The position numbers and the translations under genes are program-made. From a virus (Duplodnaviria > Caudoviricetes), in the IMG/VR virus record IMGVR_UViG_3300028914_000059, positions 116,071 to 180,070 of that record: 64,000 bases of DNA; one strand, written 5' to 3'. The notes under the pieces were generated by a model that saw only the letters and a program-made list of their open reading frames with translations, did no database searches and was not told the origin of the DNA. Shown piece after piece: positions 3,309 to 39,926 of the stretch. How positions within the stretch are numbered: position 1 is the first letter of the stretch; every line of letters begins with the position of its first letter.

Positions 3309-3662
3309 TTGAAAGACATTATAATTGATGATGTTCCAAATGCTGTAACCGTGGCTATAAATACCCTGGCTGATTATTGCAGAAGTATTCAGGGTGATAA
3401 GTATAATCCGTTCAAATGTAGAAAATGTCCTCTGTACGGCAGGAACACAGATAAGAGAGCAACAGCAGTAAGTGGTGACTATGAGGATTGCTTCTTCAGC
3501 ATGTATCATAACAGTGTTCGAAGATGGGATAATATACTAAGAGGCAAGCATCCTGACAGTGGGCATTCAGCATTCGAAGTGATGACATCATCCATGTCTC
3601 CCGACGATAAGGTTCCTGAAGACAGAGGCAGCTTTCAGATTAAAGATAAACCCTTAGAATAG
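3309..3662 (+). CDS. hypothetical protein with Cys motif
   Basis: follows previous ORF; CxxCP motif. Confidence 0.7.
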   Translation: MKDIIIDDVPNAVTVAINTLADYCRSIQGDKYNPFKCRKCPLYGRNTDKRATAVSGDYEDCFFSMYHNSVRRWDNILRGKHPDSGHSAFEVMTSSMSPDDKVPEDRGSFQIKDKPLE

Positions 3663-11159: not shown

Positions 11160-11636
11160 TTAATTGTCATTGCCTATGAGATATCCAGTACCTAGACCGC
11201 CTAAAGCACCAGCACCGAGCCCAGCTGCGCCTAAAGCAGTGCCTCGATTCCTGAGGCCTTGAACTAAATCAGTCAGTGTATCCCCTGAGGCACCCAAAGT
11301 GTCCTTAAGTGTTTTCCCGGCTTTATCTATATTGTCCAACATTTCATATGTTTGGTTATTTATTAGTCCCGGAGCAGGATTAGCTGTAAGTAATCCTGAC
11401 AGGGAGCTTAAAACACTACTAGTGTGAGCTTGATCTGCGAGATCAAGGATGTTGTCAATTTCGCTAGCCCCACCTTGCAGTGCGGTTCTTAATTTCTGTT
11501 CCAGAGCTTTAGTTTTAGCAATTCCCTTTATAGAGTCTATTATCCCAGCTTGTTTTTCCATATCTGCAGAATATCCCAGACAGGCTAATTTATACTGAGC
11601 TGCTCTGGCTATATCATTAGCTAATTTATTAATCAT
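11160..11636 (-). CDS. Gly/Ala-rich KxA-motif protein
   Basis: same leader, MEKQAG, C-terminal Gly-rich hydrophobic segment ending NDN. Confidence 0.85.
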   Translation of the reverse strand: MINKLANDIARAAQYKLACLGYSADMEKQAGIIDSIKGIAKTKALEQKLRTALQGGASEIDNILDLADQAHTSSVLSSLSGLLTANPAPGLINNQTYEMLDNIDKAGKTLKDTLGASGDTLTDLVQGLRNRGTALGAAGLGAGALGGLGTGYLIGNDN

Positions 11637-11822
11637 TGTTACATACCCCCAGAGGTTATATATAGTAATATAGGCTACAATTCTGCGTATGTCAATATAG
11701 AACTTAATTTCTACAACCCATCAGGTATAAGTATAATGTTCAAAGGAAACTTAGATTAAGCTTGCTGCTGGCTGTGCCGGGCAACTTAACGATGAAGCCC
11801 TTTAGAACAAATGGTGATTAAT

Positions 11823-11963
11823 ATGGTAAAAAATATCGTTAAAGTTATTATTGGATTTGCTGCTATGGTCATTTGCTACAAGAAGTATACAGACCTTACA
11901 GACTGGACTGTTGAAGCTTTTCTAGAACTGATCAATAACAAAAAAGCAGACGATGCTGAATAA
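11823..11963 (+). CDS. small protein with hydrophobic N-terminus (46 aa, not in ORF track)
   Basis: GGTGATTAATATG start context shared with neighbouring cassettes. Confidence 0.7.
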   Translation: MVKNIVKVIIGFAAMVICYKKYTDLTDWTVEAFLELINNKKADDAE

Positions 11964-12069
11964 GAATTTTTGGGCCTAGCAGAGCCCAGGTACTTCAGGT
12001 GCCAAATCTGTTTTTTACCTGTTAATTTTAAATGCTTGTACAGGTATAAGTATGAGCGGAGGTGATATT

Positions 12070-12360
12070 ATGTCAGCATTGTTGTATGTCCAGCAGGTAA
12101 TACTGCTTGTTTTGTTCTCTTTTTCATTCCTCCTTCTTATGGTTGAAATAGTACCAGAAAGAAGCTTGGAACTTGTCTCTGCTCTCGTAGATTTTATTAT
12201 CTTCATTAGCAGCTGGGGAGAATATGATGGCTATAAGGACTTTAGAAACAAGAAAGTTGCTGAACGTCCAGAGCTAGAAGAAGAACTTCCCGAAAGCGTC
12301 ATAGAATTCATTCTATTTTATGAAGATCATGACGACGACAAGAAAGGAGATAAAAAATAG
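12070..12360 (+). CDS. membrane protein
   Basis: GGAGGTGA RBS, hydrophobic N-terminus, own promoter motif and terminator. Confidence 0.7.
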   Translation: MSALLYVQQVILLVLFSFSFLLLMVEIVPERSLELVSALVDFIIFISSWGEYDGYKDFRNKKVAERPELEEELPESVIEFILFYEDHDDDKKGDKK

Positions 12361-12424
12361 AAAAGGAACCTTCAGGTTCTTTTTTACCTGTTAATTTTTA
12401 ACTTTGTATAGGTATAAGTATATT

Positions 12425-12692
12425 AGTAAGGATGAATGTATCTATCTAGATACGGTATCCGGCCGAATGAGGGGAGTAGAAACATCCCGCAGTTATGATG
12501 AATAACTGCTGGAGACCCAAGTTATGGTCATCTTGGTATTGCGTAAATAGGGGTTAATAATGGCCGGGCCCCGTTCCGCCTACTCGGATGTCCAAGATCC
12601 CACCCGCTACGGATCTCTCGAAAGAGGGATTAAAATGGTGCGACCAAGACAGCCAAGGCTCTATCGAAAGATATCCGGAGGGCTGTTTTTTA
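12425..12692 (+). ncRNA. candidate structured ncRNA
   Basis: promoter-to-terminator unit without a convincing ORF; several hairpins, two with GAAA loops. Confidence 0.5.
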
Positions 12693-12811
12693 CCTATTAA
12701 TTTTTTACATACACACGGGTATAAGTACAGTATCAAGAGATCAATGATCTGACATTTCTAGCGTGCTAGGGTGCAGACGTTAAATTAGGTCTCTGATACA
12801 AGGTGATTAAT

Positions 12812-13222
12812 ATGTCAGGACTCAGTAGAACAGAACGTTTTCAACAGTTGTTTAATTTGTTAAATGAACTACAGTTGGTGCCTGGTTCAGAATTTTTTGC
12901 TTTCTTGAAGCGGGAAACTCATTCACCCGCAAGTAACGCCTGCTGGCTGAAGAAAGACAACTTCTGCTACCATATGGTAGTTGATAATCTTCTGGCTCAT
13001 GAAGGATGGGAACCTGGATGCAGTGTTAGTTATGGCTATCTAGATCACGACAGAGGTACTTCTCACTTGGTCAATACTTCTGGTTCTTTGAAGTTTAATC
13101 CTAAAGATGCTGAAGAAGAAGAACTCGAAGGTTACGTTAATGCTGACGATGCAGAAGCCGCTAGAACACTTATGGGGCTGTTGCTAGATTATGAAGCAAA
13201 ATTCAAAATCAGCAAGCTTTGA
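12812..13222 (+). CDS. hypothetical cassette protein
   Basis: AAGGTGATTAATATG start; structured leader. Confidence 0.8.
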   Translation: MSGLSRTERFQQLFNLLNELQLVPGSEFFAFLKRETHSPASNACWLKKDNFCYHMVVDNLLAHEGWEPGCSVSYGYLDHDRGTSHLVNTSGSLKFNPKDAEEEELEGYVNADDAEAARTLMGLLLDYEAKFKISKL

Positions 13223-13292
13223 GTGGTAGTCAAAAAGAGCCTTTTCTCAAGGCTCTTTTTTATCTTATATTTTTAATAATTATATAATGTTG

Positions 13293-13727
13293 TTAATCAT
13301 CAATTTCAGAGTATGCTACTACCATTGGAATTCTACGCATTTTGTCAGCAGTTCTTTTATTGTAGGCATCGTACTCTTTTTTATTTGGTGATAATCCACC
13401 CGCCATTAAACCTAAATTTGTAGTTAATAGTCCAGAAGCTACCCAATCTTTGGGGTTTATAAATCTACCGGTAGCATGTCCGAGCATGCCCATTCCAGCA
13501 CCCCTGAGTATAGCTGGTAAGTATAATCTGTCTTCAGGATCGTTTGCTGCATGTTGGCCCAGGGCCCCCATTAACCCACCTGCAATTCCACCCACACTCA
13601 GAGCTGCTAATAGTTCTGGCAGTCTTGAGGGTGTTTCTATTCCAGCTATTTTTGTCGTTGTTGTGCTTAGAGCAGCTAGTTTAATCTGAGCAGCCCGTGC
13701 TATATCGTTTGCTAATTTATCTATCAT
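13293..13727 (-). CDS. Gly-rich KxA-motif membrane-like protein
   Basis: MIDKLANDIARAAQIKLA...KIAG; three Gly-rich hydrophobic segments. Confidence 0.85.
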   Translation of the reverse strand: MIDKLANDIARAAQIKLAALSTTTTKIAGIETPSRLPELLAALSVGGIAGGLMGALGQHAANDPEDRLYLPAILRGAGMGMLGHATGRFINPKDWVASGLLTTNLGLMAGGLSPNKKEYDAYNKRTADKMRRIPMVVAYSEIDD

Positions 13728-13897
13728 AGGATACAATCCTTTCAGGTATATTTCATATTATATAATATCTCTTAATTTACTTAATATCAAGCCTCTGCAC
13801 AGGTATAAGTACTCTGATAGAGGACAATAGATCTATAATTTCTCGCTGTGCCTGAGTTATAGACGATAAATTAGTCCTTATCAAAAAGGTGATTAAT

Positions 13898-14371
13898 ATG
13901 AAGTATAACGTTAAGAAAGAATTAAACAATTTCGTCAACTTTACTGGTCGCATGGCTACAGATCTTCCAGCATGTGTTCGTCGTGACTTTTTTAAGTCTC
14001 AGGGCGAAAACACCTTTACTGTAGATTTAAATAGTGACGAACTTAAAAGACTTTCTTCTAGAATTGGTGTTCAGCTAATTCAGCTTGTAATTCATTTCAA
14101 CCTCAAGGAAGAAATCGAGCTTATAGCTGAAGAAAAAGGAAGGGGCATGGGGCAGCCCAGGCTCGTCACTGTTGTAAGCAACAAGTTCGAACCAGGTTTA
14201 ACCTGGGAAGATGAACATGAAGAAGCTATCCTTCCTGCTTTGATGGAAGTCAGACAGATATTAGCTGACAGAGTTATCTCTCTAACTAAGAGAGCTCTAA
14301 AGCTCTATCCGGAAGATGAAAAAGAGCAGGAATCCTCTGAAGGCGATGCCTTTTCAGTTTTCAAAAAGTAA
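13898..14371 (+). CDS. hypothetical cassette protein
   Basis: AAGGTGATTAATATG start; structured leader. Confidence 0.8.
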   Translation: MKYNVKKELNNFVNFTGRMATDLPACVRRDFFKSQGENTFTVDLNSDELKRLSSRIGVQLIQLVIHFNLKEEIELIAEEKGRGMGQPRLVTVVSNKFEPGLTWEDEHEEAILPALMEVRQILADRVISLTKRALKLYPEDEKEQESSEGDAFSVFKK

Positions 14372-14445
14372 GTAACTCCTCCAGCTCTTCCCCTCATTCG
14401 GGGATGAGCTGGTTGCCGATTTAATTTTTAACTAAGGAGTACAAA

Positions 14446-14772
14446 ATGACTACTGATAATAACACTCAGGCAGCTCAGCTGCTGGCTGCTGCAAAAGCCC
14501 AGGGAATAAAATTTGGCACTGTGGCAAAAGAACTGGGTGTCCATAGTTATATAATAACGAACTGGTTTACAAGCAGGTCTAGAATTCCAAATGACATGCT
14601 TGTCAAACTTAAATATTTCCTTGCTAAGTTTGGCATACTGTTTAAAGAGCCGGAAGACTGTCTAGAACAGCTTCAGGTAGACGAAGAGATGCTACTGTCT
14701 TTTTATCGTAAGCTGGATTTAAAACATAAATCAATGATGTTAAGTCTAGCCGAAGATTTTAGTAAGCTTTAA
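14446..14772 (+). CDS. XRE-like HTH regulator
   Basis: VAKELGV...ITNW...IP...L.KL pattern. Confidence 0.7.
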   Translation: MTTDNNTQAAQLLAAAKAQGIKFGTVAKELGVHSYIITNWFTSRSRIPNDMLVKLKYFLAKFGILFKEPEDCLEQLQVDEEMLLSFYRKLDLKHKSMMLSLAEDFSKL

Positions 14773-14942
14773 TGCTTTTGATAACTACCGGGGTCTCCCC
14801 GGTATTTTTTTATCTGGCACTTAATTTCATTTCCTTATTTGTTATAAGATATATGCAATGAAGATATAATACCTCTAAGACTTTTGCTACAGGGCTGTGC
14901 CCGGCGGAGTTACTAAAGAAGGTGTTGTATCTGGAGATTAAT

Positions 14943-15416
14943 ATGACAAATTCTACTACTACTACTGAACTCAACCCCGTTACTACTTCTGAAAAAATAC
15001 CTGGATTCTTTACACTTAAAAACGGCCAAAAAGTCGTTCAGACTTCTGGACATCCATGCGCTTTCAATGACGGCACTGTATTTAGACCTGACGAAATAGA
15101 ATCTAAAGCTATTAAGGCCTATTTTTCTTTTCTGACCGTTGAACGCAGCTTCCAGGAAGTCCCCTCTCCTTTTCCAGGCATACGTTACACTCACAGTTCT
15201 CAAAAATTGTCAGAAGCAACTGTAAATAAACTGCATGAACTTGTAAAGGCTAATCCCGATACTATGTTCTTAGTTCCGTTTATGGTTGAAAGTGCTTTGT
15301 GGGAAATGGGTATTCGTGACAAGTTCCCGACTCTTGCTGGTGGCAATGCTACACCTGAAACTTCCAGGGAAACCCCAGATAAGAAGATTTGGAACTTGCA
15401 GAATATGGCTTACTAA
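14943..15416 (+). CDS. hypothetical cassette protein
   Basis: GGAGATTAATATG start; structured leader. Confidence 0.8.
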   Translation: MTNSTTTTELNPVTTSEKIPGFFTLKNGQKVVQTSGHPCAFNDGTVFRPDEIESKAIKAYFSFLTVERSFQEVPSPFPGIRYTHSSQKLSEATVNKLHELVKANPDTMFLVPFMVESALWEMGIRDKFPTLAGGNATPETSRETPDKKIWNLQNMAY

Positions 15417-15501
15417 TTTCGTTTCCTATCGGTTGTGGGTCATCCGTCGAAACCCTCCCGCCTTTGGCGGTGGACTTAAATTTTAATAGGAGATAAATGA
15501 T

Positions 15502-15657
15502 ATGAAAGATATATTGGACCAGGTACTTTACTTGGTCGATTCGGCTAACGACAAGCTTAGCCATGAGATGACCGACACGATCTTCTGTCTGGTTGAAGAC
15601 AAGCTTTGTCAGGCTTCTAGACTAATACAGCAGCTAAGAAATGAAGCTGGTGAATAG
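15502..15657 (+). CDS. small helical protein (51 aa, not in ORF track)
   Basis: AGGAG RBS, followed by terminator. Confidence 0.6.
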   Translation: MKDILDQVLYLVDSANDKLSHEMTDTIFCLVEDKLCQASRLIQQLRNEAGE

Positions 15658-15799
15658 TTAACTCCTCTGGTTCGCCCAGAGTTTTTTTACCTGTAAATTT
15701 TATAAATGTCTATAGGTATAAGTAGTATGTAAAGAGGCAGCTAACTGGCAATAAGTTGTACCGCCAATCAAAAGCTAGCCCCAATCAAAGGTGATTAGT

Positions 15800-16132
15800 A
15801 TGCTAATTTGCTTTATTAAGTGTGAAATAATGGAACAGCAGGAAAAGTTAACTATTAGACTTAGAAGAAGAACCGCTAAGGTTCAGGAATTAGCTCAGCC
15901 ATTACTGGCTGCTTTAGACCGGACGGTTGTTCTAATAAAAGGTGGTAGGTCTGTGCTAGACGAAGATCCGCGCAAGAACCTTCGTCCATGGCTGAGATAT
16001 GGCCTCCAGTTGATTTCTAAAATTAAGCTAGTTGACAAGTTAACAAATACTACTCACAAGCTTTCCGCAGGGAAATTGCCGTATGAACTGTTCCAGCTCC
16101 CGGCAGCTCCTGTGAGAGCTCCACACTATTAA
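15800..16132 (+). CDS. basic hypothetical cassette protein
   Basis: AAGGTGATTAGTATG start. Confidence 0.7.
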   Translation: MLICFIKCEIMEQQEKLTIRLRRRTAKVQELAQPLLAALDRTVVLIKGGRSVLDEDPRKNLRPWLRYGLQLISKIKLVDKLTNTTHKLSAGKLPYELFQLPAAPVRAPHY

Positions 16133-16234
16133 TATCCTCTAGCCGCCCACGCTACACTACTTAGCTATGCTAAGTTATTTTAAGGTGTATGCCTGGGCTA
16201 AATTTTTACCTCACAGTAGGTATAAGATATCCGA

Positions 16235-16580
16235 TGGTTGAAACATACTATATATGCGCCAGCTCAAAGCCACAGGTTGAGTTGGGGCGAGAATTAGCTT
16301 GTGGCGCTACTGTAGAAGCAGGTTACCGAAAGCTACAGATAGCAACCTAGGGTAACTGCCGGCACAAAATCCAGAAACGGCATAAAAATGGCATAGTGTA
16401 TAGGGTTCACGCTCCCATGTGTAACCCTATTGCTATGGTAGAGGTGAAATCAACGAAGTTTCGCTGACCAGTTGGGTTGATTGAGTGATGCGCGACAGAC
16501 TGAGTGAATTCTCAAAAGGCGGAATTCAGTTTTTTCAGATCTAGGCTAGCTCCGCTCGGGCTGGTGGTGAAACTTCCTCT
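16235..16580 (+). ncRNA. candidate structured ncRNA with tandem pseudoknots
   Basis: two H-type pseudoknots and further long stems; no credible ORF; promoter motif at 16219. Confidence 0.6.
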
Positions 16581-16593
16581 TGATTTTTATTTG

Positions 16594-16666
16594 AGCGGGA
16601 TGGAGCAGTTGGTAGCTCGGGAGTCTCATAAGCTCCAGGTCGCAGGTTCGAATCCTGCTCCCGCCA
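16594..16666 (+). tRNA. tRNA-Met(CAT)
   Basis: cloverleaf, CTCATAA loop, A1:C72 mismatch (initiator-like) but lacks the three G-C anticodon-stem pairs. Confidence 0.9.
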
Positions 16667-16823
16667 ATGTTCATACAACGTGCTGGGTTATTAAACTCCT
16701 TTCCCAGCACGTATTTTCTCCTTTTTTGAAATGTCGGGACGGCTGATCACCTAATCCTGGCGTTTCTTTTTTACCTATTAATAGGTATAAGTCTCTTATC
16801 TTATCTAAGGAGGAATAGTCACC

Positions 16824-39724: not shown

Positions 39725-39926
39725 TGCATGCCTGGGGAGCAGCTCCTTTAGAGTGACCTCTACAAGCGGTCGGAACTCTGGACAAGGAACTGCTCCCTTG
39801 TCATATTTAATCACCTTCATTAGAGGGGGCCAATAGAGATATCTCTATCGGTCTCCTCTCTTTTTATTTCATATTTTTAGGTATAAGTGAATTGTTCCGG
39901 AACTTAAATATATAAAGGAGGCAAAA

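Follow-up and report, generated by a model that had tools for sequence, protein, structure and literature searches.

A recurrent leader hairpin upstream of unrelated small phage genes and its possible role in message stability

Introduction

A hairpin that lies between promoter and start site, and that recurs in front of five small genes of an uncultured phage, is on the comparative evidence a real, selected, cis-acting leader RNA, and, as far as Rfam and the papers searched show, apparently one which has not been described. The phage is represented by IMG/VR virus record IMGVR_UViG_3300028914_000059 (180,070 bp, with an estimated completeness of 93%), of which we have studied the last 64 kb, referred to here as the window; coordinates are window positions unless they are marked as genome positions. 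The evidence for the structure is strong, and we hypothesise that the leader probably sets the lifetime of the message and the efficiency with which it is translated.

The genes that carry the leader are small ORFans arranged in five cassettes (A to E), and the copies lie in one hyperplastic region. Early ORFan cassettes of phages are a site at which host-takeover and anti-defence genes evolve, and to our knowledge little is known about how newly acquired phage genes are brought under control. A portable module of promoter, leader and start block would explain how unrelated acquired genes could be co-regulated instantly, and the leader would be a compact, context-independent expression part. 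The original prediction, made from the DNA sequence by itself, was of a conserved hairpin shared by five cassettes whose proteins are unrelated, and of an undescribed cis-regulatory RNA defining a regulon. The cassette proteins are indeed unrelated, as they have no match in Pfam or PHROG and no similarity to each other by BLASTP (every E-value above 0.6); the neighbouring proteins are likewise without family matches.

Architecture of the leaders

All five leaders share the same build: between the promoter core and a ribosome-binding/start block lies an unbranched hairpin of three tiers, whose outer stem (P1) is separated by an asymmetric, A-rich internal loop from a second stem (P2), which a short apical stem (P3) follows. 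The hairpin begins 5-12 nt past the core and stops 0-7 nt ahead of the start block. A hairpin at every one of the five sites is what had been predicted, although its length, at 49-73 nt, falls short of the ~70-90 nt first proposed. The promoter motifs are also where they were expected to be, with the core GGTATAAGTA matching exactly in cassettes A (11724-11733), B (12718-12727), C (13802-13811) and E (15715-15724), and a variant, GTTATAAG, at 14841 in cassette D (core GTTATAAGAT, 14841-14850), all on the plus strand. A -35-like TTAATT sits 16-17 nt upstream of TATAAG, and transcription is therefore predicted to start at the first bases of P1.

Hairpin A (11738-11808) has P1, a 3-bp stem termed P1a, a P2 of TTAAG/CTTAA and the apex GGCTGTGCC, with a minimum free energy (MFE) of -22 kcal/mol and a z-score of -2.7, this and the other hairpin z-scores being computed against dinucleotide shuffles. 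Hairpins B (12730-12799, z -4.4) and C (13816-13882, z -1.9) belong to what we call type 1, with C as its reference copy. Hairpin D (14862-14932, z -3.6) is of a divergent type with a 13-bp P1 and the apex GGGCTGTGCCC, and hairpin E (15734-15782, z -0.8) is of a short divergent type with the apex GTTGTAC; all five are on the plus strand. A sixth copy, F, lies outside the window at genome 98836-98908, behind a core at genome 98822, and precedes a 100-amino-acid membrane-like open reading frame (ORF).

The pairing stems, apex words and internal-loop words quoted in the original prediction could all be located. The stems TTAAG/CTTAA, TCTG/CAGA and TCTATAA/TTATAGA are present; the apex reads GCTGTGCC in A, C and D, GCGTGCT in B and GTTGTACC in E, giving an apical loop of UGU in A, C, D and E and of CGUG in B; and the internal-loop pattern GA...CG(A/T)T(A/G)AA is found in A, B and C. 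The shared start block is likewise borne out on all five plus-strand leaders, since GGTGATTAATATG is exact in A (11813-11825), B (12802-12814) and C (13888-13900) and differs by one mismatch in D (GGAGATTAATATG, 14933-14945) and E (GGTGATTAGTATG, 15790-15802).

Selection for RNA structure

Comparison of the members reveals compensatory changes. In the alignment of the six type-1 members, 89.4% of cells form standard pairs, and displacing the 3′ partners by 1-3 columns lowers this to 34-42%; double-sided changes that preserve pairing occur in 13 of the 21 pairs; no shuffle out of 500 attains any of five measures. This alignment was fitted to the structure by a model, which is a bias in favour of pairing. 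An independent check, using plain MAFFT and RNAalifold, recovers P1, the base of P2 and, inside the internal loop, the 3-bp P1a (AAU/AUU, CAU/AUG). Comparison of C with C2, its orthologue in a related contig, shows the fold to be kept through changes of A-U to G-C and of G-C to G-U and through the shift of a bulge.

The divergent types keep their own hairpins in relatives. In the D family 91.5% of cells pair, against 42-45% when slid, and D3, the copy in contig L124, rebuilds the four outermost pairs of P1 (AU to GC, GC to AU, AU to CG and UA to GC). On our own reading, shifted by one base, the P2 of D3 (GUAUC/GAUGU) would replace that of D (GACUU/GAGUU) and thereby add two more double changes. 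The E family, with relatives in contigs L117 and L124, keeps its hairpin (90% of cells pair against 19-42% slid), with little variation and one double change.

The coding strand folds better in 9 of the 13 distinct copies known, with a summed MFE of -275 against -241 kcal/mol and 39 G-U pairs, whereas for C and E the other strand folds as well or better; this is suggestive rather than decisive, and fits RNA rather than DNA structure. Because there are compensatory changes, and G-U pairs mostly on the coding strand, we regard the hairpins, from sequence comparison, as real RNA-level structures under selection. Conservation is highest in the 5′ internal loop (0.83), followed by the 3′ loop (0.62) and the stems (0.57), so that the loops stand only moderately above the stems. 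The notion of an undescribed cis-regulatory RNA is therefore upheld as far as selected structure and the lack of an Rfam match are concerned, and less so by the loops, which are only modestly better conserved than the stems.

Family structure and relatives

MAFFT alignments of all six hairpins (A to F) are out of register, hence a covariance model was seeded from hairpin C alone. With this first model B scores 30.9 bits (E 5e-4 in 67 kb) and F 19.5 bits, whereas A, D and E are not recovered; its matches overall are B, F and three copies in other contigs, with E-values from 1e-12 to 0.1. Copy F itself had come to light in a survey of the promoter motif across the genome. A second model, built from six aligned type-1 members, finds nothing at E≤0.3 beyond its six training copies in the 180-kb genome and ~74 kb of related contigs, and has no match at E≤1 in ~190 kb of other DNA from the phage and its relatives; searched locally, it scores A at 10.3 bits (E 0.026 in 141 nt) and D at 6.7 bits, and gives E no score at all. 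The idea that the five copies form one homogeneous element does not survive this analysis, as the covariance models join only B and C (with F), leaving A marginal and D and E divergent. By sequence and predicted fold the leaders fall into three groups, namely the type-1 family (B, C and F, with A as a borderline member), a D type and a short E type. Hairpin A shares UAGA, CGAU and GCUGUGCC with the type-1 family, while the D and E types have the position, overall build and a G-Y-UGU-R-C apex in common, with a UCUGG/CCAGA P2 in the relatives of E.

Relatives were found, through protein look-ups and one metagenome scan, as short contigs of related metagenomic phages. Contig L074 has C2 (791-857) and a D leader; L117 has, besides a D leader, the E orthologue E2 and a further, new member of type 1 (G); L124 has the strongly diverged D3 and an E variant (E3); and L125 has D4 and another new type-1 member (H). 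Together with the genome this makes 13 distinct leaders, all alike in fold. In L120, L126 and more distant contigs, a D-family gene stands behind a short unstructured leader. Scans of IMG/VR with the promoter plus start block, the internal-loop motif, a neighbouring protein and the small-RNA seed described below gave only chance matches, and one true relative (L117) was present among the 45 matches of a JGI metagenome scan. No near relative of the phage was found among deposited phages, and between its baseplate protein and that of the nearest cultured phages the identity is only ~21-31%. The leader element is so far confined to one small, uncultured phage lineage. We also observed that a 27-kb contig labelled Patescibacteria (L122, from GCA_028703545.1) carries a homologue of the D-cassette protein, 40% identical and without a hairpin leader, among cellular genes for TyrRS, a penicillin-binding protein and a SpoU methylase.

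Leaders and genes are exchanged independently

The identity of a leader and that of the gene behind it do not go together. In L074, L117 and L125 the identity of the D leader reaches 98-100%, compared with 72-75% for the 60 nt upstream and 62-66% for the coding sequence; L124 shows the reverse, with a D protein that is 91% identical behind a leader that is 71% identical. The genes of E and E2 are 98% identical and their leaders 89%, and the E3 leader precedes a gene whose opening codons are unlike those of E. Gene content at the cassette junctions also differs in L074, L117, L124 and L125: member G of L117 has no counterpart in the studied genome, and L074 lacks the 108-amino-acid gene of 14446-14772. 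The mismatches between leader and gene identity therefore imply that promoter, leader and start block travel as one unit that is not tied to the ORF. To judge from these alignments, the unit is a portable promoter-leader-start module that recombines independently of the gene it drives, and the points of joining seem to be the terminator-promoter junction and the start block rather than the hairpin.

Promoters and cassette junctions

Within the window the core GGTATAAGTA is exact at 3662, 11724, 12043, 12411, 12718, 13802, 15715 and 18640, and with at most one mismatch it occurs at 17 sites, all on the plus strand, against 5.5 expected. Promoters of this class at 3662, 12043, 16784 and 18640 drive short unstructured leaders, and the hairpin therefore marks a subset rather than the whole promoter class. 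The 8-mer TATAAGTA is one base off TATAAATA, the T4 late promoter, and a phage-specific promoter class is therefore possible to judge by the motif. Cores of the GGTATAAGTA type occur only on the plus strand in the whole genome. In two complete 182-kb phages with terminal repeats (G001 and G002, reached through L006 and L024) GGTATAAGTA occurs 15-16 times, on one strand only; these phages have no type-1 hairpin and no homologue of the neighbouring protein that was tested.

Terminators at 12373, 14786 and 15665 are followed by a junction of T-run, TTAATT and GGTATAAGTA. The core of cassette B is preceded by a terminator and the junction TTTTTTACCTATTAATTTT, that of D by the terminator at 14786-14804 and that of E by the one at 15665-15681; the promoter of cassette A has no terminator upstream and stands back-to-back with a sigma-70-like promoter on the minus strand. 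An inverted repeat, TACCT ... AGGTA, brackets the -35/-10 interval at the junctions 12020-12052, 12385-12420, 12690-12727, 15682-15724 and 16766-16793, and its TACCT arm is absent from A and C, the cassettes without an upstream terminator. Terminator-like hairpins with weak U-tracts are also seen between genes 1 and 2 at 14385-14412 (cassette C) and 15458-15473 (cassette D), and in L074 the D promoter lies directly 3′ of the same hairpin behind gene C. By their sequence and placement, the two internal hairpins look like former cassette ends.

Other elements of the array

Two minus-strand paralogues, at 11160-11636 and 13293-13736, interrupt the cassette array. Both are glycine-rich and have the N-terminus MI(N/D)KLANDIARAAQ in common, and both have near-consensus sigma-70-type promoters (TTGACA-17-TATATT and TTGATA-17-TATTAT) back-to-back with leader promoters A and C. 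Between them, the GGTATAAGTA promoter at 12411 drives ~270 nt without a convincing ORF (12411-12696) and with a terminator at its end; this stretch is structured (z -2.5), has no Rfam match and is a candidate non-coding RNA within the cassette array. Downstream of the array, at 16218-16593, a promoter variant, GGTATAAGAT, drives ~360 nt of structured non-coding RNA (z -3.8) into a tRNA-Met at 16594, and the first 40 nt of this RNA recur at the end of contig L117.

A candidate small-RNA partner

An antisense search with the start block led to CATATTTAATCACCTT at 39802-39817. This lies within the non-coding 3′ tail of an 80-amino-acid gene (39725-39870, plus strand). The tail resembles a small RNA, in that an unpaired seed (39798-39818) is set between a long hairpin on its 5′ side and an intrinsic terminator (fold z -5.6). 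The seed is identical across seven related contigs (L161-L167), in which the terminator stem and the hairpin tip vary. Its complementarity to the leader genes runs from the Shine-Dalgarno sequence to codon 2-3. Allowing at most three edits, the 18-nt seed complement has 7 plus-strand matches against 1.2 expected, and four of the seven are leaders A to D. With the small-RNA locus itself excluded, the best duplex predicted genome-wide is with the start region of B (-23.3 kcal/mol), and among 392 start-like sites the five leaders rank 1 (B), 7 (C), 20 (E), 22 (D) and 25 (A) for seed pairing. Among the relatives, the continuation of the start block is ATGACAA in D, D3, D4 and E3, a full seed match past the start codon, and ATGACTAA in G and H, a seed match with one mismatch.

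On this complementarity the start block is a probable handle by which a conserved phage small RNA would shut the gene set off, and the regulon idea of the original prediction thereby gains a candidate trans-regulator. A wider proposal, which we put forward tentatively and regard as doubtful, is that leader, start block and the RNA of 39725-39870 would together form a phage-encoded post-transcriptional regulon, which ORFans might join by acquiring the portable leader. Small-RNA pairing beside the base of the hairpin would then block ribosomes and may extend the duplex into a substrate for a double-strand RNase, so that shut-off would be coordinated.

Proposed mechanism and alternatives

The reading that we favour, with a confidence somewhat below even, is that the hairpin would be a selected 5′-terminal RNA rod which stabilises or processes small ORFan mRNAs while leaving the start block free, the start block then serving as a handle for the small RNA. 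A rod of ~22-27 pairs, with its A-rich asymmetric internal loop and UGU apex, would act in cis on the message. Firstly, an RNA that begins with a closed 5′ end would be stabilised. Secondly, the rod may be a processing site for a host double-strand RNase of the RNase III type. Thirdly, with the 5′ untranslated region folded on itself, the strong start block 0-7 nt downstream would stay free; the mean unpaired probability of the start block is 0.57 in the native leaders, 0.48 when the hairpin is shuffled and 0.61 without the upstream RNA. Lastly, the phage small RNA at 39725-39870 could pair with the start block and shut the set off. Transcription start, stabilisation, RNase cleavage and small-RNA repression are all steps that we infer.

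Several observations weigh against this mechanism. The conserved 5′ internal loop (0.83) and the recurrent UGU apex would be needless for a simple stabiliser. The phage genome has no recognisable gene for RNase III, a double-strand RNA-binding domain protein or L7Ae, and therefore the nuclease or binder must be host-derived or novel. The effect on start-block exposure is small, and the start sites of A and F are poorly exposed. Hairpin E alone is not significant against shuffles and its minus strand folds better, both D and E are unscored or poorly scored by the type-1 model, and L120 drives its D-family gene from a short unstructured leader. As to the small RNA, its 11-nt exact seed match is not significant alone, since 50% of shuffled targets reach 11, and the leader start blocks, being copies of a single sequence, amount to effectively one good match and not five.

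The main rival, which we judge unlikely, sees the hairpin as an operator bound in a sequence-specific manner by a protein of phage or host, which would read the UGU apex and the AGA/C-A-rich internal loop and repress or activate translation of the whole set, much like translational operators of the coat-protein or RegA type. Conservation is strongest in the 5′ internal loop (AAUAGA) and at the base of P2 (UCU/AGA), with an identity of 0.83 against 0.57 for the stems; a UGU triloop is present in 9 of the 13 distinct copies, with G-C or C-G as its closing pair (U-A in the E type), and the element ends adjacent to the start block. However, B, F and H each have another apex (CGUG, GUU and AGUA, respectively), the 3′ loop differs by up to 5 nt in length and has lost its GA in C2, B and G, and no candidate binder was found, the proteins of the cassettes and their neighbours being without family matches.

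Four further explanations are less likely than a protein operator. The strong terminators that bound the cassettes, the terminator-like hairpins inside C (~14385-14412) and D (15458-15473) and the directly promoter-proximal position of the element would suit a processive antitermination signal of the put or nut type, which would modify the polymerase to read through such hairpins. We consider this improbable, given that every cassette has its own promoter and that the single-gene cassettes A, B and E carry the hairpin too; the element is moreover a single unbranched rod rather than a two-stem put, no boxA-like sequence is visible in the leaders, and there is no Rfam match. We likewise give little credence to the view that the hairpin has no specific function and is a passive relic, or generic 5′ structure, of a duplicated promoter-leader segment. 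The copies do lie in one hyperplastic region, and same-class promoters at 12043, 3662 and 18640, and in L120, have short unstructured leaders; against this, 13 of the 21 pairs show compensatory changes, L124 has a P1 made anew from different sequence, and the D leader, at 98-100% identity, is set off by sharp boundaries from surroundings of 62-75%.

It is also very unlikely that the element acts as DNA, with the RNA fold as a by-product, whether it serves as an operator, forms a cruciform or is the recombination site through which cassettes are shuffled. Such a role would be in keeping with the shuffling of cassettes between relatives, with the conserved AGATCT, which is a DNA palindrome, and with the minus strands of C and E, which fold as well or better. 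However, 39 G-U pairs fall on the coding strand, and in 9 of the 13 copies this strand gives the better fold. The word AGATCT is frequent in the genome, with 78 copies where 57-73 would be expected, the element lacks a GTTRRRY core of the attC kind, and the recombination joints appear outside the hairpin. Finally, a riboswitch or other ligand-sensing leader controlling the start site hardly seems credible, for although there is a structured 5′ untranslated region with a conserved internal loop beside the ribosome-binding site, the hairpin contains no complement to the start block or alternative pairing and is followed by no U-tract, P3 and the 3′ loop vary in length, and the genes are unrelated ORFans with no metabolic theme and no Rfam match to their leaders.

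Some more specific candidates were tried and rejected. A leader peptide was rejected as short ORFs occur only in A, B and F and are not conserved, and no pairing was found between hairpin and start block. The internal loop is not a consistent kink-turn, which calls for a three-nucleotide bulge and tandem sheared G.A pairs: the 5′ strand does have a GA before P2 in most copies, but the 3′ strand has a 1-nt bulge in C, A and H and no GA in C2, B and G, and the phage has no L7Ae-family gene. An integron attC site was dismissed in view of the lack of RYYYAAC/GTTRRRY cores and of the position of the element, 5′ of the gene and between promoter and start site; an N4-type promoter hairpin was rejected as well, and so was AGATCT as a special DNA site, its frequency in the genome being unremarkable.

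Comparison with known systems

Base-pairing small RNAs derived from 3′ untranslated regions occlude ribosome-binding sites. The element at 39725-39870 is like them in its hairpin, single-stranded seed and terminator, and unlike them in being phage-encoded and in having as its predicted target a family of portable leaders. For the leader hairpins themselves Rfam 15 offers no counterpart: a scan of the window at gathering thresholds returned tRNAs only, and a permissive scan of 11650-16700 gave nothing that overlaps any hairpin.

The setting of the leaders is reminiscent of the promoter-early/stem-loop (PeSL) cassettes of T4-type phages (PMC2839356, PMC4122927). Here, as there, conserved junctions of terminator and promoter flank ORFans in a hyperplastic region at which the gene content of relatives differs, and the resemblance to PeSL holds for the junctions only. 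In PeSL the stem-loop is the upstream terminator, whereas the hairpin described here is downstream of the promoter, lacks a U-tract, ends at the Shine-Dalgarno sequence and is thus an additional module. The promoter consensus, TTAATT-N16-17-TATAAGTA, is also unlike the PeSL promoter.

A second parallel is with stabilisers at the 5′ terminus of mRNAs, namely the ompA 5′ hairpin and the ribosome-binding-site stabilisers of the aprE and SP82 leaders (PMC7509114); that the ribosome-binding site of the SP82 leader stabilises mRNA is relayed there from Hue et al. 1995. Like these, the leaders would have a stable hairpin at or near the predicted 5′ end, followed by a strong Shine-Dalgarno sequence. 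The known stabilisers differ in having no conserved loop sequences and in being features of single genes.

The third parallel is with the RNase III sites of phage early mRNAs, for which T7 R0.3-R1.3 and SP82 (Panganiban & Whiteley 1983; Mitra & Bechhofer 1994) are cited in PMC4838370 and PMC1935012. The T7 and SP82 substrates are stems with internal loops that receive a single cut on the 3′, or downstream, side (PMC1935012), which in SP82 leaves behind a ribosome-binding site by which the RNA downstream is stabilised (PMC7509114), and they share with the leaders here the property of being repeated at several early genes of one phage. Irregular hairpins of ~20 pairs or more, as in the T7 and SP82 sites, are also found here in the predicted folds, with a P1 of 9-13 bp (plus P1a), a loop of 3 versus 5-10 nt and a P2 and P3 of 10-13 bp together, and as in those substrates two helical tiers surround an asymmetric loop, for ~two turns in total. 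Each copy here, in contrast, stands behind its own promoter rather than between the genes of a long transcript; nor are the UGU apex and the AAUAGA loop known determinants for RNase III. Overall, the leader is best filed as a variant of the processing and stability elements of phage early leaders, one with an unusual modular spread and a plausible link to a small RNA.

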